Shown piece by piece: positions 43,629-64,000 of a stretch of DNA of 64,000 nt. Under the pieces are notes generated by a model. That model ran no database searches and was not told where the DNA came from. It saw nothing but the letters and a program-made list of their open reading frames with translations. Position 1 is the stretch's first letter; every line of letters starts with the position of its first letter. Source of the DNA: Escherichia coli. Its GTDB lineage: Bacteria; Pseudomonadota; Gammaproteobacteria; Enterobacterales; Enterobacteriaceae. Location: the NCBI RefSeq assembly GCF_001677475.2, contig NZ_CP015229.1. One strand, given 5' to 3'. The translations under genes were made by a program, and so were the position numbers.

Positions 43629-43705
43629 GGAGCGGTAGTTCAGTCGGTTAGAATACCTGCCTGTCACGCAGGGGGTCGCGGGTTCGAGTCCCGTCCGTTC
43701 CGCCA
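43629..43705 (+). tRNA. aspU: tRNA-Asp (anticodon GTC), distal tRNA of the rrn operon
   Basis: ggagcggtagttcagtcggttagaatacctgcctgtcacgcagggggtcgcgggttcgagtcccgtccgttccgcca, 77 nt. Confidence 0.95.
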
Positions 43706-50923: not shown

Positions 50924-50987
50924 CTCTGGTAGACTTCCTGTAATTGAATCGAACTGTAAAACGACAAGTCTGACATAAATGACCGCT

Positions 50988-51719
50988 ATGAGCACTGCAA
51001 TTACACGCCAGATCGTTCTCGATACCGAAACTACCGGTATGAACCAGATTGGTGCGCACTATGAAGGCCACAAGATCATTGAGATTGGTGCCGTTGAAGT
51101 GGTGAACCGTCGCCTGACGGGCAATAACTTCCATGTTTATCTCAAACCCGATCGGCTGGTGGATCCGGAAGCCTTTGGCGTACATGGTATTGCCGATGAA
51201 TTTTTGCTCGATAAGCCCACGTTTGCCGAGGTAGCCGATGAGTTCATGGACTATATTCGCGGCGCGGAGTTGGTGATCCATAACGCAGCGTTCGATATCG
51301 GCTTTATGGACTACGAGTTTTCGTTGCTTAAGCGCGATATTCCGAAGACCAATACCTTCTGTAAGATCACCGATAGCCTTGCGGTGGCGAGGAAAATGTT
51401 TCCCGGTAAGCGCAACAGCCTCGATGCGTTATGTGCCCGCTACGAAATAGATAACAGTAAACGAACGCTGCACGGGGCATTACTCGATGCCCAGATCCTT
51501 GCGGAAGTTTATCTGGCGATGACTGGTGGTCAAACGTCGATGGCTTTTGCGATGGAAGGAGAGACACAACAGCAACAAGGTGAAACAACAATTCAGCGCA
51601 TTGTGCGTCAGGCAAGTAAGTTACGCGTTGTTTTTGCGACAGATGAAGAGCTTGCGGCACATGAAGCCCGTCTCGATCTGGTGCAGAAAAAGGGCGGAAG
51701 CTGCCTCTGGCGGGCATAA
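50988..51719 (+). CDS. dnaQ: DNA polymerase III epsilon subunit (3'-5' proofreading exonuclease)
   Basis: ORF-track entry 50979-51719 trimmed to ATG at 50988: [39 protein letters not shown]...; divergent from rnhA. Confidence 0.95.
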
Positions 51720-51841
51720 ATACCTGTAAAAGGCGCTAAAAATAGCGACTTGGGCGATTTTTGCAGCAAACGATTCAAAAGATGAGAAAAACCGTTGACG
51801 AAGGGTGAGGCAATCCGTAATATTCGCCTCATTCCCAACGG

Positions 51842-51918
51842 AACACAACGCGGAGCGGTAGTTCAGTCGGTTAGAATACCTGCCTGTCACGCAGGGGGTC
51901 GCGGGTTCGAGTCCCGTC
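51842..51918 (+). tRNA. aspV: tRNA-Asp (anticodon GTC)
   Basis: Identical 77-nt sequence to aspU; located after dnaQ as in K-12. Confidence 0.95.
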
Positions 51919-51925
51919 CGTTCCG

Positions 51926-51966
51926 CCAATATTCAGAAAGCCCGAATCAGTAATGATTCGGGCTTT
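51926..51966 (+). terminator. aspV terminator
   Basis: gaaagcccgaatc-agtaat-gattcgggctttc followed by gtcgtttt. Confidence 0.65.
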
Positions 51967-52015
51967 CGTCGTTTTGGTGAAGCGAGAATTTTTCACTCCG
52001 CAAGTAAAACGAATA

Positions 52016-52055
52016 TGATTTAAAAAATGGCCAGATAATATAAATTCTGGCCACT
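52016..52055 (-). terminator. Probable terminator of the minus-strand T6SS operon (after tssA)
   Basis: On the minus strand: tggccag-aatttatatta-tctggcca followed by ttttttaaatc. Confidence 0.5.
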
Positions 52056-52059
52056 TCTG

Positions 52060-53106
52060 TTACTCCAGCGCATCCCATTTTTCCAGCAGTTCTACTGGAA
52101 TTTCATTTATTACCTCCGAGAAGCGTTTTCCGACCAGGCGTTCTGCCTGGCGCAGCAAAGGAATGGTCGGGCTGCTCGGTTCGCTGTGCTCAAACCAGCG
52201 ACGGATGACACGCAGGCGTTCCAGCGCGTCGTTCCGGTCGCGGATCTGCCGGGGTTCTGCGCCGGACATCGGTGATATTTCCTCCGCGATATGCACCGGT
52301 AGCGCAATCTGCTCTGATGATATCTCTTCAGTATGAACGATGGTGGTGCTCTCCGGCTGTTCAGCCACTGGTTGTGGCAGGATCTCCGGCGTGGTGGTCC
52401 GTATCGCTCCCGGCAACAGGGCCAGCAATTGTGTCAGACGGGATAGGTTCGGTGCCTGGTCATTCAGCGTTTCACGCGCATGGCGTTGCAGCCGCTCAGT
52501 GGTCTCTGCGGCCTGGCGAAAGGCATCCAGCGGCAGTGTGCCGCGCGCCTCCAGGTCGGCCAGTTGCTGGCGTACCGATTCTGGTGCCAGCGCATCCGCC
52601 GGGCGTGATGCAGACAGCGAACGCTCCACATCCCGTACCTGAAGGCGTATGGCAGCATTGTTTGACAGTGTAATGCCACGAATATCCGCTATTACGCCTT
52701 CATGGTCCAGCAACGCCGCCAGGGCGTTACTACGTGCCACTGCCGCCTCTTCGGCGGTGATATCTTCAGTCGCGAGCAGTTGAGGATGGATGGCGTTCGG
52801 GTACGTGGCGCACAACGTTTCCAGCAGCGCGAGCGCCTCCGCCAGTCCCCTGGCACCGGCCTGCTGGATACGGCAGCGCAGCAGGACAACCAGAATGCGG
52901 ATATCTTTGCTGCGCGTCAGCAGGCGGCAGGCATCCCGCTCAAGCTCCGCCCAGTTAATGGTTTCCGGCGTACTGACAAAATCGCCGTATTGCGCTTCTT
53001 CACGCGGTGCGGCGCGCGTGAACAGTAGCAGGTATTCCGGATCGTACTCCAGATCCGGGCCGCAGGGGCATTCTGCCGAAATTGGGTCAGACAGGGATGT
53101 ATCCAT
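52060..53106 (-). CDS. tssA: T6SS protein TssA (ImpA N-terminal domain family)
   Basis: 348-aa ORF MDTSLSDPISAECPCGPDLEYDPEYLLLFTRAAPREEAQYGDFVSTPETINWAELERDACRLLTRSKDIRILVVLL, the ImpA_N signature pattern. Confidence 0.8.
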   Translation of the reverse strand: MDTSLSDPISAECPCGPDLEYDPEYLLLFTRAAPREEAQYGDFVSTPETINWAELERDACRLLTRSKDIRILVVLLRCRIQQAGARGLAEALALLETLCATYPNAIHPQLLATEDITAEEAAVARSNALAALLDHEGVIADIRGITLSNNAAIRLQVRDVERSLSASRPADALAPESVRQQLADLEARGTLPLDAFRQAAETTERLQRHARETLNDQAPNLSRLTQLLALLPGAIRTTTPEILPQPVAEQPESTTIVHTEEISSEQIALPVHIAEEISPMSGAEPRQIRDRNDALERLRVIRRWFEHSEPSSPTIPLLRQAERLVGKRFSEVINEIPVELLEKWDALE

Positions 53107-53116
53107 TAAATTATCC

Positions 53117-54112
53117 TCAGTGCGCCAGGTAGTGTTCTGGTTCGAAAATCATGCCCGTCACCGGGTTTTCGTGCATGGCTTTACCCGCCCATGCGGTCCA
53201 GCCCAGTTGGTACGAACCACCGGTAACAGCCGGAGGGGCGGCGTGGGGCTTTAGCTGTAGCTCAATTTCCCAGCAGTATTCAAAACCGCTAAAGGAGCGG
53301 ACCAGTTCTGTCAGGACTGGCAGGTTATTGCCGCCAGGCAGAAAACGTCGGTAATCCTCCAGCGTCAGCGGGCCGATAACCAGCCGGAACTTATACTGCA
53401 TGTCCGGCACGGCCTGGCCGATGAGTGCACCGTTGCCAATAACGGAAGAGGGGGCTGGCATCCCCAGCCGGGTGATCTCATCGTCCGCCACGGCTATCCA
53501 GTGCAGGACATACTCCTGTATCCGGAAAGGTACACCGAAATAGTGCGCCAGCGTGGTGGCCAGACCGTCCGGATTGCGGGACTCACGCACCAGATGGGCC
53601 GATGCCGCCAGGCGAGCGTGATCCTGCAACGGGCTGTCGGCGCTCTCCCGCAAATCCTGCCCGCTGAGGCTGGCGATATAAAAGGCAAAACGGTCATGTT
53701 GCGGTTTATCCAGACCGCCCCCAGCGGACTGGGCGCTGCGCCATGCCTGGTAAAACTGCGTCAGCCAGCGGTGATGAAAAAGATCAGAAAAACGGGTTAG
53801 CGTCGGGTCTCTTCGGCTTTCAGTCCGGTTGTGCGCCAGTTCGGTGTAGTGCAGCGGCAGTGGACCGTTCGGCCCCCACAGCCCGAGACTGTACAAACTG
53901 ATATGCAGCCGCTCTTCCTGCCAGCTCACACTGGCGATTTCCCGTGGCGCAAAGGTCAGCGCGGGAGTTTGTCCGAGGCGAAATTTTTCCATCCGTGGTT
54001 GCCAGGTGTTGCCTGCCGGAACAGTACACAACTGCACATCCACGCGGCGCATCAGGTTCAGAAAACCGTAACGCCAGGGGGTTTCCTGCGCCTGAGTGAA
54101 ATCGTCGCTCAT
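53117..54112 (-). CDS. tssG: T6SS baseplate subunit TssG
   Basis: 331-aa ORF MSDDFTQAQETPWRYGFLNLMRRVDVQL..., immediately downstream of and 4-nt overlapping tssF. Confidence 0.8.
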   Translation of the reverse strand: MSDDFTQAQETPWRYGFLNLMRRVDVQLCTVPAGNTWQPRMEKFRLGQTPALTFAPREIASVSWQEERLHISLYSLGLWGPNGPLPLHYTELAHNRTESRRDPTLTRFSDLFHHRWLTQFYQAWRSAQSAGGGLDKPQHDRFAFYIASLSGQDLRESADSPLQDHARLAASAHLVRESRNPDGLATTLAHYFGVPFRIQEYVLHWIAVADDEITRLGMPAPSSVIGNGALIGQAVPDMQYKFRLVIGPLTLEDYRRFLPGGNNLPVLTELVRSFSGFEYCWEIELQLKPHAAPPAVTGGSYQLGWTAWAGKAMHENPVTGMIFEPEHYLAH

Positions 54113-55992
54113 ACGCTTCCCCGCTGTCCCGCCCTGGCAGGCCAGGTCATAATTTTGCCGCGCTGCATGCTGTGCAGCGTCATCTGCGAGAAGGTATTAA
54201 TGGAAACATGACGGGCGATATAGTGCTCCAACACCAGACCGAACAGATACGGACTGATACCGGAGAACCCCTCCTCATCCACGGTCAGTTCACAACTGAC
54301 GCCGCGCCCATAGACCAGCAGCCCGGAACCGGGCAGACGGCGGGTGACCGGGGTGGTGTTGCAGCCAATCAGGCTGCGCACCTGGCGCGACTGCGGACTG
54401 TCATGCGCCGGAATAAACAGGTTAAGCAGATCGCGCAGCGCCTGACCACCGGTACGGTGATCCAGATCGGCCAGCGGCAGATAGTTAAAGGATAACTGGC
54501 GGATCAACCGCCAGGCCATTTCACGTTCAGCCAGCGGAGGCTGCGGCGGACGCGGCGGACGGATAAGCCCCACGCCCGCCACCGGGATGGCCGCATCCAC
54601 GGTCAGATCGTCCCGTCCATTGCGGGCAATAAGACAGGGCAGATCGCGGTTGGTGACCATAGCCGTGATGGTGATATGGCGCAGATTTTCCGGGTATGGC
54701 GCTTCATACTGGTCAACCAGCGACAGGAACACTTCTGATCCTGTATAGGAGGTGCGGGTGCCATAGCGGCGGGCATTTTCCGACAACCGGCGCGGCTCCC
54801 GGCGCAGGGAAAAATAACGTCCGTGATTGCCTTCATCATTATTGCGGGTGTGGTAGAGCGGGCGAAAGGCCATCTTCCGTGTGGTGTCAGTTTCCAGCCC
54901 TTCCACTTCCTGGACCGAGAACACCTCATAATCCAGCGGATGGGTTCTGTCCACCACCAGATGCTGTTCCGTCGTGCTGTGCGTGACATCGATCCGGGCG
55001 GCGACTCGGGGAAACAGGTTGATAACCGGGGTACAGAACAGACTGAACTGTGCCGCGTTTGTCTGGTGGATCAGCCAGTCCGGCGGCAGGCGGTTCAGCA
55101 GGATAACAATCTCCGCCACTCCGCCTTCAATTTTCTGTAACCCGGCAGACAGGCCTGTCGGGGTGAAAAAAAAGAAGCGTTCCGGACAGGTAAAATATTC
55201 ATGTAGCAGGTTATGGCCGTGAAACACATTCCACGCCAGCGGCAACAGTCCCTGATCCGGATCCAGGCCTTCGTACATAACGGGCTGTTTCAGATTCACA
55301 TCCAGTGCGCCGTCAAAATGCCCCGGAATGCCAGCCAGGCTCGCGATGGCGCTGGTATGCAGTAGTTCGAACAGGTGTGAGGCCGTGCGCTCCTCGCCGC
55401 AGAGATAAAATGGTAGCTTGTTCAGCCCTGCAAGCTGACTGAACGTCAGTTCACCAAAGGTGCGCAGGGTAATACGCAGCGCACCAGCGACGTGAATGTT
55501 GGCTGGCAGGTAGCGGTGCAGGGCAGGCATATCCGGCGGCGCGGCGGTCAGGCGCACCTCTTCGATGGCAAGCGGCCACAGCGTCACATTCTGGCTGCTA
55601 CGAAACTGGCAGGCAGTACTTTCGCCTTCCGGAATGGCGGAAAAAAAGGCCGTGTTGCGCGGGACGGTGAATCCCTTCGCCAGATCGCCTTCTTCCGGAT
55701 CGGGATGAAGCTGCGCCACGCTCATTGAGGGCGTGGGTGTGACGTAATTGGGGCTGACCACTTCCAGCAGGCGCTGGGTGAAACGGGGGAATTCAGCGTC
55801 AATTTTTAGCTGCGTGCGGGCGGTCAGGAAGCTGAAGGCCTCGACCATTCGCTCCACATACGGATCGGCAATATCCGTTCCCTGCATACCCAGTCGGGCG
55901 GCGACTTTAGGATGACGGGCGGCAAATTCGGCTCCCGTTTCCCGCAGATAGCTCAGTTCGCGGTTGTAGTATTCCAGTAGCCGTGGATCCAT
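54109..55992 (-). CDS. tssF: T6SS baseplate subunit TssF
   Basis: 627-aa ORF with the characteristic TssF N-terminus MDPRLLEYYNRELSYLRETGAEFAARHPKVAARLGM. Confidence 0.88.
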   Translation of the reverse strand: MDPRLLEYYNRELSYLRETGAEFAARHPKVAARLGMQGTDIADPYVERMVEAFSFLTARTQLKIDAEFPRFTQRLLEVVSPNYVTPTPSMSVAQLHPDPEEGDLAKGFTVPRNTAFFSAIPEGESTACQFRSSQNVTLWPLAIEEVRLTAAPPDMPALHRYLPANIHVAGALRITLRTFGELTFSQLAGLNKLPFYLCGEERTASHLFELLHTSAIASLAGIPGHFDGALDVNLKQPVMYEGLDPDQGLLPLAWNVFHGHNLLHEYFTCPERFFFFTPTGLSAGLQKIEGGVAEIVILLNRLPPDWLIHQTNAAQFSLFCTPVINLFPRVAARIDVTHSTTEQHLVVDRTHPLDYEVFSVQEVEGLETDTTRKMAFRPLYHTRNNDEGNHGRYFSLRREPRRLSENARRYGTRTSYTGSEVFLSLVDQYEAPYPENLRHITITAMVTNRDLPCLIARNGRDDLTVDAAIPVAGVGLIRPPRPPQPPLAEREMAWRLIRQLSFNYLPLADLDHRTGGQALRDLLNLFIPAHDSPQSRQVRSLIGCNTTPVTRRLPGSGLLVYGRGVSCELTVDEEGFSGISPYLFGLVLEHYIARHVSINTFSQMTLHSMQRGKIMTWPARAGQRGSV

Positions 55993-56007
55993 CGGTTTCT
56001 CTCTGAA

Positions 56008-56502
56008 TTAAAAAAACGTAATGCGGCTCTGTTCCATATCCAGCGCGCTGCGTACCCGGAATGCCATCGGGTAGGGCTGCGTGAGGATCTCGCCGCGAAT
56101 TTCAAACTGTAATGTGTTATGGCCGCTCTGGTGGCGCTCATCCTGAAGTGGGATGATTTGCAGGGGGGACGCTTTCAGCCGGGGTTCAAACCGGATGATG
56201 GTACGCAAAATGGCCCTGTGAATATCGTCCCACTTGTGTTCATACAGAAAGCTGCCCGCCAGTGGCGGCAGGCCGTAGTTCAGTACGGACGCTGCCGCGT
56301 GCGGATAACGTGCAGCATCAATATCATCTTCATGGCTGACGGTGTTGAGCAGAAATGACAAATCCCGGCGAATGATCTCCTTAAGCTGAACCGGGCTGAC
56401 GCTGATATCGTGGTCGCGTTTCTGGTTTGGGGCATCATCACACAGGCGGTCAAACAGCGTGGGCAGCAGGTGATTGCCCGGACGCTGGCGGGAAGCGCTC
56501 AC
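56008..56502 (-). CDS. tssE: T6SS baseplate protein TssE (gp25-like)
   Basis: 164-aa ORF LLPTLFDRLCDDAP...VQLKEIIRRDLSFLLNT...YGLPPLAG, typical TssE pattern. Confidence 0.8.
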   Translation of the reverse strand: MSASRQRPGNHLLPTLFDRLCDDAPNQKRDHDISVSPVQLKEIIRRDLSFLLNTVSHEDDIDAARYPHAAASVLNYGLPPLAGSFLYEHKWDDIHRAILRTIIRFEPRLKASPLQIIPLQDERHQSGHNTLQFEIRGEILTQPYPMAFRVRSALDMEQSRITFF

Positions 56503-57329
56503 GCGTCGCTTCCTTCAGCGGTGTTAAAGGTACAGGTGGACAAATCCAGCAGGCTGATATCGCCGTGACCGGTGAGCCACACCCTCTGACCCAGCGCCTG
56601 TACCAGAGTCTCTCCCGGCCCGTCCTGCCAGACCGTTTTCCGGCACAGACGCAGGGAGTCGGCAGCCTTTTCAGAGCCGCTGTAGCGGGAAAACAGCCAG
56701 GCACTGTGTGTGTCGCCATTATTCAGTGTGACGTTGACGGGTTTCCAGATCAAATCGGTCAGATGCGCAGGCCGCGGCGATTTTAGCGAACAGATTTGTG
56801 AAAACGGCAACCAGATATATACTCCGCCCGCGATGAGTTCGAGTACCGGACCGGTACGGGAGTCGCTGTCGCTAATCCAGTCAAATGCGCCGCCATTCCA
56901 CTGTCCTGCAGTATCTGTTATGGCCTCAAGTGCGCGGCTGCGGTGGGCGTCAGCTTCCTGCGCTTCACCACGGGCGTTACAGGCGAGGGCGGTCAGCAGA
57001 TCCTCCATCCAGGCGGGCGGCGGGAGAATAAAATCGGGCCGCTGTTCTCCCTGAAAGCAGGCGTGGCGGTATATCTCACAGCGGATCAGCTCGCCAAATA
57101 CCTGCGCTTCGCGGGTATAATTTGCGTCCATCCGGGCGCATAGCTGGATCTGTTGCAGTGCCCGCGACCAGTCGCCTGCCACGCACAATAACTGAAACAG
57201 GCTGTGGCGGCGGGAGGCCTGCGCCGGGGGCATCCTGACCTGCTGCTCTGCCATCTGAATGCCCTCCGCCACGGAATAATCCCGCAGCAGCGCCGACAGG
57301 GTAGCCGGTAGCTCGTTATTGTTTGTCAT
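56499..57329 (-). CDS. tagJ: T6SS accessory protein, TagJ/ImpE-like (tentative)
   Basis: 276-aa ORF in operon between fha-like gene and tssE; size and overall pattern resemble ImpE-family proteins; assignment by recollection, not alignment. Confidence 0.5.
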   Translation of the reverse strand: MTNNNELPATLSALLRDYSVAEGIQMAEQQVRMPPAQASRRHSLFQLLCVAGDWSRALQQIQLCARMDANYTREAQVFGELIRCEIYRHACFQGEQRPDFILPPPAWMEDLLTALACNARGEAQEADAHRSRALEAITDTAGQWNGGAFDWISDSDSRTGPVLELIAGGVYIWLPFSQICSLKSPRPAHLTDLIWKPVNVTLNNGDTHSAWLFSRYSGSEKAADSLRLCRKTVWQDGPGETLVQALGQRVWLTGHGDISLLDLSTCTFNTAEGSDA

Positions 57330-58230
57330 GAGATATCTCTCCGTGTTGTGCCGGGTTTATCCGATAATGGCTGTCAATGCCAATGATGCGATGCTCTTTG
57401 CGTGTCAGGTCGGGTAGAACGGTGTTATGCGCTGTTTCCGGTGCGCATTCCGGGGATAGCAGGTGCAGGATATCTGGGGGCGTCTTTTCGGCAGGCCAGG
57501 CGGTTTCCCCTTCGCCGGTGGCGTCCAGGACATCGAGAATAGCGTCAATGCTTAACCCGCCAGTGACCATATCCTGCAATGTCTCGGCTTCAGTGACCAG
57601 ATCACGCAATGAATCCAGATCCTGTGAGGAGGGCTCTTCGTTAAAGGGAAAAGGATCAGCATGGCGATGAAGATCTTGTTCAGGAGATAACAACGCCTCG
57701 CGGTATTCCTGATAAAGTCGAGTCAGGGCATTTTCTTTTTTAGCATCTTCTCCAGTGGAGGAGGCTCCATGAACAGGAATGATATCGAATGGATTTTGTG
57801 ATGTCAGATGCTGCTGCCTGAACCAATCCAGATCCAGATATTCGGTTATTGTTTCCGACATGGTGGCAGTCTGCGATGTCGTTTTTACTGCGCTCAGGTC
57901 CGGAGATGATGGATTGCCGTGCACAAGGCACCATGAAGATAACCCCCATTCTATCAGGTCGCCTTCATTCAGACGCATACGGTGATGAGGTTCCACAATC
58001 TGGTCGTTTACCGTACAGCAATATTCGGTAGACTGATTGATAATCCACCATGCTTCTTCGTGGCGGGTCAGACTGAGGGCAATCTTTACATCATCATTCA
58101 CCTCAAAAACAGGAATCCAGGGTGAGGTAACGGTGAAGATAATTTGGGTTCCTTCAGTCGCGTAAATTGTGTTATCGGCGATCCCGTGCGCCTGTATTTT
58201 TTGGAGTCCCCACGTAATATTTGGTTTCAT
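57316..58230 (-). CDS. T6SS-associated protein with N-terminal FHA-like domain (TagH/Fha-like, tentative)
   Basis: 304-aa ORF; first gene of the minus-strand operon; N-terminal roughly 100 aa end in ...TVNDQIVEPHHRMRLNEGDLIEWG, resembling the C-terminal strand pattern of FHA domains; acidic Ser/Thr-rich C-terminal half. Confidence 0.45.
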   Translation of the reverse strand: MKPNITWGLQKIQAHGIADNTIYATEGTQIIFTVTSPWIPVFEVNDDVKIALSLTRHEEAWWIINQSTEYCCTVNDQIVEPHHRMRLNEGDLIEWGLSSWCLVHGNPSSPDLSAVKTTSQTATMSETITEYLDLDWFRQQHLTSQNPFDIIPVHGASSTGEDAKKENALTRLYQEYREALLSPEQDLHRHADPFPFNEEPSSQDLDSLRDLVTEAETLQDMVTGGLSIDAILDVLDATGEGETAWPAEKTPPDILHLLSPECAPETAHNTVLPDLTRKEHRIIGIDSHYRINPAQHGEISHDKQ

Positions 58231-58562: not shown

Positions 58563-61196
58563 ATGGACACTCCTGTTTCGCGCAGTGCACTGTATGGAAA
58601 GCTAACCAAATCTTTGTTTAGATCTTTGGAATCTGCGACGACGTTCTGTAAATTACGCGCTAATCCTTATGTCGAACTGACGCATTGGTTGCATCAGTTA
58701 ATACAACAACCAGAGAATGACATTCACAATGTGCTTCGACATTATCAAATAACATCTGCTGATGTTGAGAAGGCGTTAATTCAGCAATTGAATATATTGC
58801 CTGCCGGAGCGAGTGTAATTAACGATTTTTCCCATCATATCGATCTTTCTGTTGAAAAAGCCTGGATGTTGGCAAGTATCCGCTTTGGCGATCAAAAAAT
58901 TCGTAGTGGATGGTTATTACTTGCCTGGTTAACCACGCCAGAATTGTGTCGGGTGTTAAAAAATATTTGTGCGCCATTGGCAGAGCTGCCGGTAGATGAA
59001 CTATTAGATATTCTTCCGTCTTTAATCACTTCATCTCCTGAATTAACAGAAATGCCTTATGACTGCTCGGATTTAAATTCTGCAGTACCGGGGGAAGCTA
59101 GCCAGGTCTTTGCCGGCGAATCAACCGGAAGCAAATCCGCGCTGGCGAAATACTGCCAGGACATGACTGCGCTGGCCCGTGAAGGCAATATCGATCCGGT
59201 CACCGGTCGCGAACACGAGATCCGTACTATGACGGATATTCTGCTGCGCCGTCGCCAGAACAACCCGCTACTGACCGGCGAAGCGGGAGTCGGGAAAACG
59301 GCAGTGGTGGAAGGATTCGCGCTGGCGATTGCCGGGGGGGAAGTACCGCCTTCACTGCGTAACGTGCGGTTGCTGTCACTGGATGTTGGAGCGCTGCTGG
59401 CTGGGGCGTCCATGAAGGGTGAATTTGAATCCCGCCTGAAAGCGTTGCTAGAAGAGGCCGCGCGCTCGCCGCAGCCGGTAATCCTTTTTGTTGATGAAGT
59501 TCACACGCTGGTGGGCGCTGGTGGTACATCCGGTACGGGGGATGCTGCCAACCTGCTGAAACCGGCGCTGGCGCGTGGCACCCTGCGCACCATCGGCGCA
59601 ACCACCTGGAGCGAGTACAAACGCCATATCGAAAAGGATCCGGCGCTGACTCGGCGTTTTCAGGTATTGCAGGTTGCTGAGCCGGAAGAGGTTGCGGCTG
59701 TTGAGATGGTACGCGGGTTAGTCACCACGCTTGAAAAACACCATGACGTGCTGATCCTTGATGAGGCCGTGCGCGCCGCCGTACAGCTTTCTCACCGTTA
59801 CATTCCGGCCCGGCAACTACCGGATAAGGCCATCAGCCTGCTGGATACGGCGGCGGCCCGTGTAGCGCTGTCGCTGCATACCCCGCCTGCGAGAGTCCAG
59901 TATCTGCGCCAGCAGCTCAACGCTGCCGAACTGGAGCAGGTGTTGTTATTAAAGCAGGAAAAAATGGGTATCCGCTCGGAGCGGGGCGATGTACTGACGG
60001 CGCGGATTATATCGCTTAATGCCGATCTTTCTGACACCGAAGCGCGGTGGCAGCAGGAACTGGAGTTGGTTCGCAGTTTACAGGAGCAACGCGGCGCAGC
60101 GCCTGGCGAGCGCGACGAAATCACTCTACAACAGGCAGAAACGGCATTAAGAGGCTGGCAGGGTGAAAACCCCGTCGTGTACCCGGAAGTCAGTGCAACC
60201 GTGGTGGCAGAGATTGTCTCCGACTGGACCGGTATTCCCGCCGGACGGATGGTGAAAGATGAAGCCAGTCAGATACTGGAATTGCCCACCCGTTTGGCGC
60301 AGCGTGTTACCGGGCAGATGGATGCGTTGGCGCAGATTGGCGAGCGTATCCAGACCGCGCGGGCGGGTTTAGGTGACCCGCGTAAGCCTGTGGGTGTCTT
60401 TTTGCTGGCCGGGCCGTCCGGAGTAGGCAAGACTGAGACCGCGCTGGCACTGGTAGAAGCAATCTATGGCGGTGAACAGAATCTGATCACCATCAACATG
60501 AGCGAGTATCAGGAGTCTCACACAGTCTCCACTCTGAAAGGCGCGCCGCCCGGCTACGTCGGTTATGGCGAAGGCGGCGTGTTGACGGAAGCGGTACGCC
60601 GCCATCCCTGGAGCGTGGTATTGCTGGATGAAATTGAAAAAGCCCATCACGACGTCCACGAGCTGTTCTTCCAGGTGTTTGATAAGGGGGCGATGGAAGA
60701 TGGCGAAGGTGTCCACATCGATTTCAAAAATACCACGCTGTTGTTGACGACTAACGCGGGGGCGGAACTTATCAGCCAGCTCTGTGAGGATCCGGCGCTG
60801 ATGCCCGATTCGGCAGGGTTAAAAGAGGCGTTAATGCCGGAGTTACGTAAACACTTCCCGGCGGCTTTCCTGGGGCGTGTGACGGTTATTCCTTATTTAC
60901 CGCTGGATGAGACCGCGCGTGGTGTTATTGCCCGCCTGCATCTTGGCAGATTGATGGCTCGGATGGCGGAGCAGCATGGCGTTTCACTGGTGTATGGCGA
61001 TGAACTGATTACGCATATTGTGTCGCGCTGCCCGATGCACGAGACCGGCGCTCGTTTGCTCATCGGCTATATCGAACAACATATCCTCCCACAACTGTCC
61101 CGTTATTGGTTGCAGGCGATGACAGAGAAAACGGCCATCACGCAAATCCGCATTCGTGTTGATGAGGATGAACAGATTATTTTTGAAACGGATTAA
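58563..61196 (+). CDS. clpV: T6SS AAA+ ATPase ClpV (TssH)
   Basis: 877-aa ORF with two AAA+ modules: Walker A GEAGVGKTAV and GPSGVGKTETA, Clp N-domain-like N-terminus. Confidence 0.92.
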   Translation: MDTPVSRSALYGKLTKSLFRSLESATTFCKLRANPYVELTHWLHQLIQQPENDIHNVLRHYQITSADVEKALIQQLNILPAGASVINDFSHHIDLSVEKAWMLASIRFGDQKIRSGWLLLAWLTTPELCRVLKNICAPLAELPVDELLDILPSLITSSPELTEMPYDCSDLNSAVPGEASQVFAGESTGSKSALAKYCQDMTALAREGNIDPVTGREHEIRTMTDILLRRRQNNPLLTGEAGVGKTAVVEGFALAIAGGEVPPSLRNVRLLSLDVGALLAGASMKGEFESRLKALLEEAARSPQPVILFVDEVHTLVGAGGTSGTGDAANLLKPALARGTLRTIGATTWSEYKRHIEKDPALTRRFQVLQVAEPEEVAAVEMVRGLVTTLEKHHDVLILDEAVRAAVQLSHRYIPARQLPDKAISLLDTAAARVALSLHTPPARVQYLRQQLNAAELEQVLLLKQEKMGIRSERGDVLTARIISLNADLSDTEARWQQELELVRSLQEQRGAAPGERDEITLQQAETALRGWQGENPVVYPEVSATVVAEIVSDWTGIPAGRMVKDEASQILELPTRLAQRVTGQMDALAQIGERIQTARAGLGDPRKPVGVFLLAGPSGVGKTETALALVEAIYGGEQNLITINMSEYQESHTVSTLKGAPPGYVGYGEGGVLTEAVRRHPWSVVLLDEIEKAHHDVHELFFQVFDKGAMEDGEGVHIDFKNTTLLLTTNAGAELISQLCEDPALMPDSAGLKEALMPELRKHFPAAFLGRVTVIPYLPLDETARGVIARLHLGRLMARMAEQHGVSLVYGDELITHIVSRCPMHETGARLLIGYIEQHILPQLSRYWLQAMTEKTAITQIRIRVDEDEQIIFETD

Positions 61197-61386
61197 TGGA
61201 GCATCCTTATGGCAAAAGAATTAAGTGGCGCACTGTGGTTCAGTCGCTTTCCTGGAAGTTCTTCCACTAATGATTTGCAGGGGACTTTTCGTGCATCGGT
61301 AGATAATTTTTTGCGCGCGCATTGGTAATGCGCGTGCAAGGGTCAGTATCTCTGCAACATATCGCCCTCCCGCCAGAGCATATCTC

Positions 61387-61773
61387 ATGCACTGGTCATG
61401 GTTGATTGCTCATGAAATCGTTCAGGCAAAAAACGTCCCGGCGATGGAGGGGGTGGATATTGAGTGGGTTCACCCGACTGAGCAAGCCTCGCTTGAAGCG
61501 GCGCAGGCTATGGTTACGGCCTATGGTATTAATAATCTGAATGTCGCGCCTGCACTGAGCTCCAACCATACACGCGGTACTGCGATAGATATGAATATCA
61601 GTTGGAGCGGAACATTAACAATTGCGGGGAGCAATGGTCAGAATGTTGCAATTAATACACTACCTCGAACCGGAATGAATGCCCAGCTTCAGGCGGTAGG
61701 TCTGGGTTACGGCGTCAGAAAATTTGTTGGCGGCAATACAGATATACCTCACTGGTCAATTGATGGACATTAA
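61387..61773 (+). CDS. Candidate T6SS effector: small zinc metallopeptidase of the VanY/peptidase M15 (LAS) type, predicted peptidoglycan peptidase
   Basis: 128-aa ORF, no signal peptide, no Cys; exact VanY-type motif S59-N-H61-T-R-G64-T-A66-I-D68 (SxHxxGxAxD) at nt 61561-61590 and C-terminal His in IPHWSIDGH; located between clpV and tssB. Confidence 0.5.
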   Translation: MHWSWLIAHEIVQAKNVPAMEGVDIEWVHPTEQASLEAAQAMVTAYGINNLNVAPALSSNHTRGTAIDMNISWSGTLTIAGSNGQNVAINTLPRTGMNAQLQAVGLGYGVRKFVGGNTDIPHWSIDGH

Positions 61774-61775
61774 GT

Positions 61776-62066
61776 ATGACATTTCGTTATCCGATGTTGT
61801 TGACATTCCTGTTAATGATGTTCGCTTTCTGTGTTCAGGGGGAACCGCCTTTACCACAGGATGTGCAGCATTTTCTGAGTAATGCGGAAATGTGCCAGCA
61901 TCTTGCTGGTGAATGGGACAGTTCTTTACCAAAGAAGGATAAAAGAGACATCGAAAAGGGGGTTGATACCTGGTGTCCTCCGGCGAAGAAATCACTCCCT
62001 GTGCTGCGGGAAAAGTACAAAGAAAACAAAGAGATTATAAAAATACTCTCTGCGTATGATTTTTAA
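61776..62066 (+). CDS. Candidate periplasmic immunity protein for the upstream peptidase
   Basis: 96-aa ORF starting 2 nt after the peptidase stop; N-terminal Sec-type signal peptide MTFRYPMLLTFLLMMFAFCVQG; two Cys in mature part; Lys/Glu-rich C-terminus. Confidence 0.45.
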   Translation: MTFRYPMLLTFLLMMFAFCVQGEPPLPQDVQHFLSNAEMCQHLAGEWDSSLPKKDKRDIEKGVDTWCPPAKKSLPVLREKYKENKEIIKILSAYDF

Positions 62067-62127
62067 ACTGTACCGTCGGGCCACTCTCCAGGTGGTCGTC
62101 GGCTGACTGATAAGGAAATGAAGGATT

Positions 62128-62673
62128 ATGGCTATCAACAACAGCGCGCAGAAGTTTATTGCCCGCAACCGCGCGCCCCGCGTGCAGATTGAGTATGACG
62201 TTGAGATTTACGGCTCCGAGAAAAAAATCGAACTGCCGTTTGTCATGGCGGTGCTGGCCGATCTGGCTGGTAAACCACGCGAAGAGCTGCCACCGGTCAC
62301 CGATCGTAAATTCCTTGATATTGATATCGATAACTTCAACGAGCGGATGAAAGCCATTGCGCCGCGCGTGGCGTTTGCTGTCCCCAATACGCTGACGGGC
62401 GAAGGGCAGTTAATGGTCGATATCACGCTGGAGAATATGGACGATTTTTCGCCTGCGCAGATTGCCCGTAAGGTGGATGCCCTGAACCAGCTGCTGGAAG
62501 CGCGTACTCAGCTTGCCAACCTACAAACGTATATGGATGGTAAAGCGGGAGCAGAAAATCTTATCAACAAACTATTACAAGACCCTACGTTACTGAAAGC
62601 TCTGGCTAGTGCGCCAAAACCTGTCGCTCAACAGGAAAGTGTCTTATCAGGTGAAACGGGAACAGCAGACTAA
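62128..62673 (+). CDS. tssB: T6SS contractile sheath small subunit TssB (VipA)
   Basis: 181-aa ORF MAINNSAQKFIARNRAPRVQIEYDVEIYGSEKKIELPFVMAVLADLAGKP..., classic VipA pattern. Confidence 0.9.
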   Translation: MAINNSAQKFIARNRAPRVQIEYDVEIYGSEKKIELPFVMAVLADLAGKPREELPPVTDRKFLDIDIDNFNERMKAIAPRVAFAVPNTLTGEGQLMVDITLENMDDFSPAQIARKVDALNQLLEARTQLANLQTYMDGKAGAENLINKLLQDPTLLKALASAPKPVAQQESVLSGETGTAD

Positions 62674-62697
62674 CTGCGATTTTATTAAGGAACTTCC

Positions 62698-64000
62698 ATG
62701 GTAAACGATACTCTTCTGGCGACTGGCGAACTCTCTGCTGCGCAAACCACTGCCTATCAGGACACTGAATTTGATTCGCTCTTGGATAAAGCCTTCCGTC
62801 CCAAGACACCTCAGGCAGCAAAGGCTGTTGAGGCAGCAGTTCAGACGCTGGCCCAACAGGCTTTGACAAATACCGTCACCGTCAGTGACGACGCTTATAA
62901 AAGTATTGCTGCGATTATTGAGCAGATCGATTTCAAATTAACTGAGCAGATCAAACTAATCCTGAGTCATCCGGAATTTCAGAAACTGGAGTCCTCCTGG
63001 CGTGGGATGGAACATTTGGTTTACAACACTGAAACCGATGAAAAATTAAAAATCCGTTTTATGAATCTTTCAAAGGATGAATTGCGGAAAAATATGAAGC
63101 GTTACAAAGGGATCGCCTGGGATCAAAGCCCCATGTTCAAAAAGCTTTATGAAGCTGAATATGGACAGTTAGGCGGAGAACCTTACGGTTGTATCATTGC
63201 GGATTATTATTTTGATCACACGCCACCGGATGTAGATCTGCTCGGCTCCATTGCCAAAGTGGCAGCCTCAGCCCATGCGCCGTTTATTGCTGGGGCCTCT
63301 CCGTCAGTGTTGCAGATGGACTCCTGGCAGGAACTGGCTAACCCGCGTGATCTGACCAAAATTGTGACCCAAAACCTCGAATACGCACCGTGGAACTCGC
63401 TGCGAAAAAGTGAGGATTCTCGCTACATTGGCCTGACGATGCCACGTTTTCTCTCCCGTTTGCCTTATGGTGCGAAAACAAACCCTGTCGATGAGTTTGA
63501 TTTTGAAGAAGATGCGGATGGCGCAGATCACAGCAAATATGTCTGGAGCAATGCCGCCTATGCAATGGGTGTAAATATCAACCGCTCTTTCAAACATTAC
63601 GGTTGGTGTACGTTGATCCGTGGTGTTGAATCTGGTGGCGCGGTGGAAAATCTGCCCTGTCATACCTTCCCGACCGATGACGGCGGCGTGGATATGAAAT
63701 GCCCGACAGAAATTGCCATCTCTGACCGTCGTGAAGCTGAACTGGCGAAAAATGGTTTTATCCCACTTATCCACCGCAAAAACTCTGATTACGCCGCCTT
63801 TATTGGCGCGCAGTCTCTACAAAAACCGCAGGAGTATTACGATCCGGACGCTACGGCCAACGCCAATCTCTCTGTTCGTTTGCCATATCTTTTCGCCTGT
63901 TCACGGTTTGCGCACTTCCTCAAATGTATCGTGCGCGACAAGATCGGCTCGTTCAAAGAGCGTGAAGATATGCAGCGCTGGCTCAATGAGTGGATCATGA
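62698..64000 (+). CDS. tssC: T6SS contractile sheath large subunit TssC (VipB), 5' partial, continues past window end
   Basis: ATG at 62698 with SD-like aagg upstream; translation MVNDTLLATGELSAAQTTAYQDTEFDSLLDKAFRPKTPQAAKAVE...; no stop in window so absent from ORF track. Confidence 0.9.
   Translation, partial: MVNDTLLATGELSAAQTTAYQDTEFDSLLDKAFRPKTPQAAKAVEAAVQTLAQQALTNTVTVSDDAYKSIAAIIEQIDFKLTEQIKLILSHPEFQKLESSWRGMEHLVYNTETDEKLKIRFMNLSKDELRKNMKRYKGIAWDQSPMFKKLYEAEYGQLGGEPYGCIIADYYFDHTPPDVDLLGSIAKVAASAHAPFIAGASPSVLQMDSWQELANPRDLTKIVTQNLEYAPWNSLRKSEDSRYIGLTMPRFLSRLPYGAKTNPVDEFDFEEDADGADHSKYVWSNAAYAMGVNINRSFKHYGWCTLIRGVESGGAVENLPCHTFPTDDGGVDMKCPTEIAISDRREAELAKNGFIPLIHRKNSDYAAFIGAQSLQKPQEYYDPDATANANLSVRLPYLFACSRFAHFLKCIVRDKIGSFKEREDMQRWLNEWIM

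Follow-up and report, generated by a model that had tools for sequence, protein, structure and literature searches.

The tRNA gene aspV is a recognised integration hotspot, for which PAI-CFT073-aspV has been listed (PMC7545054). SPI-6 of Salmonella adjoins this gene, SPI-20 is also located at aspV, without obvious repeats (PMC2907695), and two variants of the E. coli T6SS-2 were found to be mutually exclusive at tRNA-Asp (PMC8715443). In the comparison of SPI-6 by Blondel et al. (2009), the partners were Burkholderia and Ralstonia rather than E. coli, and a search of the literature yielded no description of a SPI-6-like T6SS at aspV in E. coli. T6SS islands at aspV devoid of integrase and repeats have already been described, and the junction analyzed here is an ordinary feature of this well-known hotspot.

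The window, that is, the whole stretch of 64,000 nucleotides analyzed, belongs to an E. coli chromosome (NZ_CP015229.1) and carries, in this order, rrnH, aspU, the genes from dkgB through dnaQ, aspV, and a T6SS cluster. The core genes on the left side of the hotspot end with dnaQ (50979–51719, plus strand), an open reading frame that bears this name in collinear genomes and was 98–99% identical to other E. coli; the mltD-dnaQ flank as a whole showed 98.2–98.5% identity to other E. coli, K-12 included. A consensus scan located a putative sigma-70-like promoter of aspV (TTGACG and TAATAT separated by 17 nt; 51795–51823, plus strand), within a block that was conserved in the alignment with Salmonella and C. 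farmeri. The tRNA-Asp(GTC) gene aspV itself (51852–51928, plus strand) was detected by ARAGORN and reached 67.7 bits with Rfam RF00005. In the Rfam scan of 51400–52400 the tRNA alone passed, the matches to the S15 leader and the Thr leader being far under their gathering scores. Downstream, the native Rho-independent terminator of aspV was predicted by folding and conservation at 51936–51974 (plus strand), as a stem-loop and a T-run: the consensus scan found a 14-bp stem with a 4-nt loop at 51936–51967, followed by GTCGTTTT. The energy of this hairpin was −24.6 kcal/mol (z = −6.0), and none of 200 shuffles was as good.

The first gene of the island, tssA (52060–53106, minus strand; stop codon at 52060–52062), is an open reading frame of the ImpA family named TssA or ImpA in relatives, and its product matched Pfam ImpA_N (PF06812) with E = 3.5e-30 and 105 bits, the gathering cut-off being 26.9. 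A second Rho-independent terminator, that of the tssA operon, was predicted at 52021–52058 (minus strand). Its core stem (52028–52035/52046–52053), followed by T6, closes a 10-nt loop and is extended to 52023–52058 via A/G:U pairs; its energy was −17.4 kcal/mol, with z = −5.7 against shuffles. This hairpin was missed in the consensus scan because its loop exceeded the limit of the scan, which was 8 nt.

Nine Escherichia junctions, a small sample, were aligned to follow the conservation of pairing. All 14 pairs of the aspV hairpin were retained in the nine sequences, with compensatory double changes at 51939/51964 and 51943/51960. The tssA hairpin showed one compensatory pair (52030/52051), and two of its changes form U.G pairs on the minus strand, which would be mismatches if read on the plus strand. 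Each of the single-sided changes in the two hairpins gave G.U on the transcribed strand. Both structures consist of a GC-rich stem-loop with a U-run, are more stable than expected by chance and have preserved their pairing; both are predicted to act as terminators. Some 53 nt separate the two hairpins; aspV and tssA lie 130 bases apart, with the two back-to-back terminators between them. Such terminators are common between convergent genes; the arrangement is real, and it is not remarkable. All of the elements listed in the earlier note were present, with corrections to their limits: the aspV terminator, given there as 51926–51966, starts 10 nt later, at 51936, and that of tssA, given as about 52016–52055, occupies 52021–52058; the description was accurate within some 10 nt.

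Beyond tssA, the genes tssG, tssF, tssE, tagJ, and tagK (53117–58230, minus strand) were assigned to one operon with it from the open reading frames and the annotation of the 98–99% identical loci L001 and L004, and their order matches that of Salmonella SPI-6. A divergent T6SS operon (58563–64000, plus strand; open reading frames and the L004 annotation) contains tssH/clpV, two small genes, tssB and the start of tssC, and the island runs past the window. The GC content rises from 0.47–0.50 in the core flank to 0.58–0.60 across tssA-tssE; this atypical composition and the variable presence among strains are traits of tRNA-integrated islands that the region does show. Its content and order, tssA-G-F-E-tagJ-tagK and the divergent tssH...tssBC-tae4-tai4-hcp-tssJKL...tssM in the aspV-yafV interval, are those of a SPI-6-type T6SS, a system for which i3 is the presumed subtype. 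A 94-nt "tRNA-His" reported by ARAGORN at 54233–54326 (minus strand) lies inside the tssF coding sequence, was repeated at the equivalent place in L010, and is almost certainly a false positive. Additionally, tssH/clpV is intact in the window (58563–61196, 877 aa), and in strain 2012C-4221 (L001:26864-28345) its annotation reads "AAA family ATPase", with a reduced length of 1,482 nt, which suggests decay of the T6SS in that strain.

The limits of the island were determined with a 601-nt query across the junction, compared with 5,426 complete E. coli genomes, which gave three classes of match. Full-length matches were obtained in 78 genomes, the best one in 2012C-4221 (99.3%), and the carriers numbered 78–87 by the full query or by the spacer described below, about 1.5% of the total. 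An empty-site allele was present in 757 genomes (W4, for example); here, aspV and the same terminator, common to both alleles up to 51974, are followed by approximately 60 unrelated nt and then by yafV. The breakpoint against this allele is 51974|51975, 46 nt past the tRNA. In 4,107 genomes, aspV is followed by a yafT/FHA-type T6SS island or its K-12 remnant, with a terminator of its own, and the breakpoint against this type (K-12, O157, U1) is 51935|51936. Finally, CEC15 and L725, in which the same T6SS is located at aspU, match the window only from 52062, in the tssA stop codon (breakpoint 52061|52062). The boundary was thus confined to a short interval, as had been claimed, being 51974|51975 when empty-site genomes are the reference, with 52061|52062 as its rightmost limit. 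Comparison with K-12, which had been recommended for placing it, would misplace the edge, since what K-12 has there is left over from another island, and its sequence departs from the window as early as 51935|51936.

Between the breakpoints against the empty site and the aspU-located T6SS lies an 87-nt spacer (51975–52061, no strand assigned), which was specific to the aspV form and holds the tssA terminator. It was found as one copy in each of 87 of the 5,426 E. coli genomes, with 90–100% identity and always at the aspV locus, and was not found in the Salmonella, Citrobacter or CEC15 junctions. The promoter-like sites within it were no better than 9/12 consensus matches and were set aside. 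A short conserved inverted repeat, GTGAAG...TTTTTCAC, was also noted in the spacer between the two terminators (51976–51998), and its ATTTTTCAC block was invariant in the nine Escherichia sequences.

Several genomes retained traces of a former island. Seven of them carry a scar that consists of the first 56 nt of the spacer, an IS1 inserted at 52030|52031, within the tssA terminator, and scraps of the island; in one example, E. coli C9 (L025:2955-4060, equivalent to window 51930–52030), nearly the whole island is deleted. In LR-31, a truncated tssA was retained beside aspV after an internal deletion. The approximately 60-nt spacer of the empty site was searched for inside the island-bearing genomes and was not found, and hence a clean insertion does not account for the difference between the empty and occupied alleles. 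With about 1.5% of the genomes carrying the junction, and the remainder including the 757 empty sites, the 4,107 with the other T6SS or its remnant and the seven IS1 scars, the island is not fixed in E. coli, contrary to what the earlier note had proposed.

The window covers the first 12 kb of the island, and the far end was read in VCSW7 and 2012C-4221 (98.9–99.3% identical). In VCSW7 (98.9%), the island extends over approximately 37 kb from aspV to yafV and contains the T6SS core, tae4/tai4, vgrG, Rhs, and an ISAs1 pseudogene located 36 nt from the yafV stop; 2012C-4221 is arranged alike. No integrase was annotated in either strain, and no integrase open reading frame or remnant was present in the window. 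Searches with four integrase queries and higA by tblastn gave no match in the window, VCSW7, or 2012C-4221, and no trace of integrase, higA, or attL was detected at the junction by blastn or tblastn. The last 14–25 nt of aspV, with up to three mismatches, were not repeated across the window or the islands of these two strains. The sole other match in the window was aspU (43688–43705), so that, besides aspU, the 14-nt sequence CGTCCGTTCCGCCA (51915–51928, plus strand), which serves as att core for another integrase in strain PapRG-06-5, occurs here as a single copy. In VCSW7, a site 1.5 kb from yafV agreed with the 3′ end of aspV at 12/14 positions; it was discarded, as this is no more than chance would give (about 0.3 such matches per 100 kb), 2012C-4221 lacks it, and a similar match lay inside fliG in L008. 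An integrase beside the tRNA, a 3′-end repeat at the far side and foreign DNA directly after the tRNA, which characterize integrase-mediated tRNA islands, were all lacking; the absence of integrase and att repeat reported before thus held for the window and, when the suggested search was carried downstream, for the whole island in the two relatives.

The ISAs1-yafV right junction recurred in K-12 and U1, whose T6SS is of the other type. Both types of T6SS island at aspV end in ISAs1/ISEc1 (H-repeat) at the yafV stop codon (L004:12388-13524, L002:8311-8598, L019:23303-24769), and the right junction is therefore shared by otherwise unrelated islands; the original one may have been erased by ISAs1. 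Two 11-nt matches, CGGGCTTTCGT between an arm of the aspV terminator and the last codons of the ISAs1 transposase near yafV, and another between the empty-site spacer and the start of the transposase, were rejected as recombination microhomology. They were judged to be due to chance because their BLAST E value was about 7, the first lies in a conserved transposase coding sequence, and their orientations are opposite.

The junction and its spacer were found to be orthologous in Escherichia sp. E1V33, Escherichia sp. MOD1-EC7003, and the divergent strain E69, for which identity to the window was 94–97% in the flank and 83–94% in the T6SS genes. The corresponding values were 83% and 70–84% for Salmonella, and 84% and 74–84% for C. 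farmeri. The most closely related E. coli carriers shared 98.4–99.7% identity in the T6SS genes and the junction, and 98.2–98.5% in the flanking core. Orthology in three other Escherichia lineages indicated that the junction is old, in agreement with the earlier note.

These results make it probable that the region is the left junction of an ancient SPI-6-like island of approximately 37 kb, a buffer of convergent terminators and not an att site, whose turnover proceeds by homologous exchange and IS deletion. An att site is discarded because the island begins after the native terminator, integrase and tRNA repeat are missing, and the far end consists of Rhs and ISAs1 at yafV. Transcription of the tRNA would stop at the native aspV terminator, and that of the tssA-tagK operon at the terminator on the other strand, at a distance of 53 nt, so that the tRNA would be insulated from the convergent T6SS operon. 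The junction is inherited, in the several Escherichia lineages, along with the core genes on its flanks. The empty, FHA-type, and SPI-6-like alleles would replace one another by homologous exchange of whole alleles via the conserved flanks, and by IS-mediated deletion, rather than by excision; judging from the shared flanks, the common right ends and the deletion scars, homologous exchange is the most likely mechanism of this turnover. Several observations qualify this reading, among them the missing 60 nt or so of the empty allele in occupied genomes. The T6SS genes are compositionally foreign (0.58–0.60 GC against 0.47–0.50) and more diverged than their flanks, so that repeated import may also have occurred. 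Furthermore, close relatives of this T6SS travel with integrases, at aspU (CEC15, L725), at thrW in C. koseri, and as a remnant at aspV in Salmonella.

These relatives bear on the integrase loss put forward in the earlier note. In the form considered here, the island would have entered at aspV by means of a P4-like integrase specific for tRNA-Asp, with subsequent erasure of the integrase and of both attL and attR. A scan of genome contigs with TssA gave only three close Escherichia loci, and other genera were reached via protein search and exact-protein contig look-ups. In E. coli CEC15 and L725, the same T6SS, with genes 88–96% identical, is located at aspU, 8 kb upstream of aspV, in the order tRNA-Asp, P4-like integrase split by IS3, Integrase_1-type pseudogene, higA, and tssA. 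This integrase has the domains Arm-DNA-bind_3, Phage_int_M, and Phage_integrase. At the far end of this aspU island, ISEc1 truncates dkgB, and the aspV-yafV interval is empty there. The tRNA-Asp/integrase junction seen in CEC15 (L005:3349-9000) and L725 (L024:1349-7000) occurred in 89 genomes; its counterpart in the window is aspU (43629–43705). In Citrobacter koseri, the T6SS cluster is located at thrW with the same higA/Integrase_1 module. The gap between aspV and tssA in Salmonella enterica CP034712.1 (L014:5057-5375) is a composite of 319 nt, in which positions 2–131 and 144–231 were 78 and 91% identical, respectively, to the attL region and first integrase codons of CEC15; positions 229–319 were 91% identical, over 91 nt, to the sequence following tssA in the C. 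koseri thrW island, and a 26-aa higA remnant was also present. Since this gap holds an integrase remnant, integrase loss did happen in Salmonella, and SPI-6 once had a P4-like integrase beside aspV. C. farmeri shows dnaQ-aspV-tssA with another, unrelated gap of 264 nt.

A similar history in the window would be favored by these cases and by the disruption of the right end by ISAs1, with which attR could have gone. Nevertheless, the tRNA is followed here by its native terminator, identical to that of the empty sites up to 51974. In the integrase-mediated cases at tRNA-Asp (CEC15, Salmonella, and PapRG-06-5), foreign DNA begins 1–2 nt past the CCA end, as observed in CEC15 against the normal aspU flank, and the native terminator lies beyond the far repeat. 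Because insertion by an integrase displaces the native terminator, a simple deletion cannot restore the order tRNA, terminator, island. This was illustrated by E. coli PapRG-06-5 (L022:448-45604), in which a 45-kb CP4-like island, bracketed by the 14-nt repeat CGTCCGTTCCGCCA, occupies aspV. It contains an intact integrase, approximately 30% identical to that of CEC15, fimbriae, an autotransporter, and a CbtA/YeeU toxin-antitoxin. Beyond its far repeat come the native terminator, the 87-nt spacer, and tssA, the T6SS junction being pushed 45 kb from the tRNA; hence, this junction behaved as pre-existing chromosome. Neither integrase, higA, nor attL left a trace in the window, and the ancestor of several Escherichia lineages already had the junction in its present form. 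Integrase loss is accordingly a weaker alternative for this junction and an unlikely one, the claim being unsupported here.

A recent horizontal acquisition from another Escherichia lineage, whose architecture the tight boundary would then reflect, agrees with the rarity of the junction in E. coli (78–87 of 5,426), with spacer alleles (90–100% identical) that differ more widely than the core, and with the GC step at the boundary, but it is less likely still, as the identity among the closest carriers resembles that of the flanking core, the dnaQ-aspV spacer next to the island is ordinary E. coli sequence, and such an event, which also requires homologous recombination and not an integrase, would alter the date of arrival and not the nature of the junction.

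Beyond the ancient junction favored above, it is conceivable, if rather doubtful, that the SPI-6-type T6SS is no inserted island and already resided between aspV and yafV in the forebear common to Escherichia, Salmonella, and Citrobacter, that it was lost repeatedly, with the FHA-type replacing it in most E. coli, and that the integrase-bearing forms are secondary captures. If so, the Integrase_1/higA/integrase module would let the cluster hop between tRNA genes, as at aspU, at thrW in C. koseri, and in the Salmonella remnant.

Compared with the islands that use the same tRNA landmark by means of P4-like integrases (PAI-CFT073-aspV, PapRG-06-5), the island in the window differs in that those begin right after the CCA end, have an integrase, and are closed by a copy of the 3′ end of the tRNA, which measures 14 nt in PapRG-06-5. 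The presence of a tRNA gene beside an island does not imply insertion mediated by an integrase. The FHA-type T6SS of E. coli (T6SS-2 of Journet and Cascales; O157 OI-7; the yafT-ykfM-yafU remnant of K-12) occupies the same hotspot, also without integrase or tRNA repeat, and its right end, Rhs and ISAs1/ISEc1 at yafV, is like that of the island described here. Nevertheless, its genes are unrelated (tagH, vasL, vasI), it diverges 7 nt past the tRNA with its own terminator, and, whole or as a remnant, it was present in 4,107 of the 5,426 genomes, against about 80 for the junction of the window. Of the two T6SS types, the genomes examined had either one or the other between aspV and yafV. Salmonella SPI-20, likened from its description, contains a T6SS of a different lineage. 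A further related system is Salmonella SPI-6 (SCI), which shares dnaQ, aspV, and tssA at the left, as well as the order and orientation of ImpE, gp25/TssE, TssF, TssG, and ImpA, with a nucleotide identity of 70–84% that is near the 83% of the flank; by yafV, at the right, SPI-6 carries saf, pagN-like, and LysR genes. The junctions of the two are, however, non-homologous, since the 319-nt gap with integrase and higA remnants in Salmonella contrasts with the native terminator and 87-nt spacer of the window. One T6SS, with an integrase-less form at aspV and an integrase-linked form at aspU in E. coli, and with an integrase remnant in Salmonella SPI-6, offers a natural comparison of how mobility is gained and lost.
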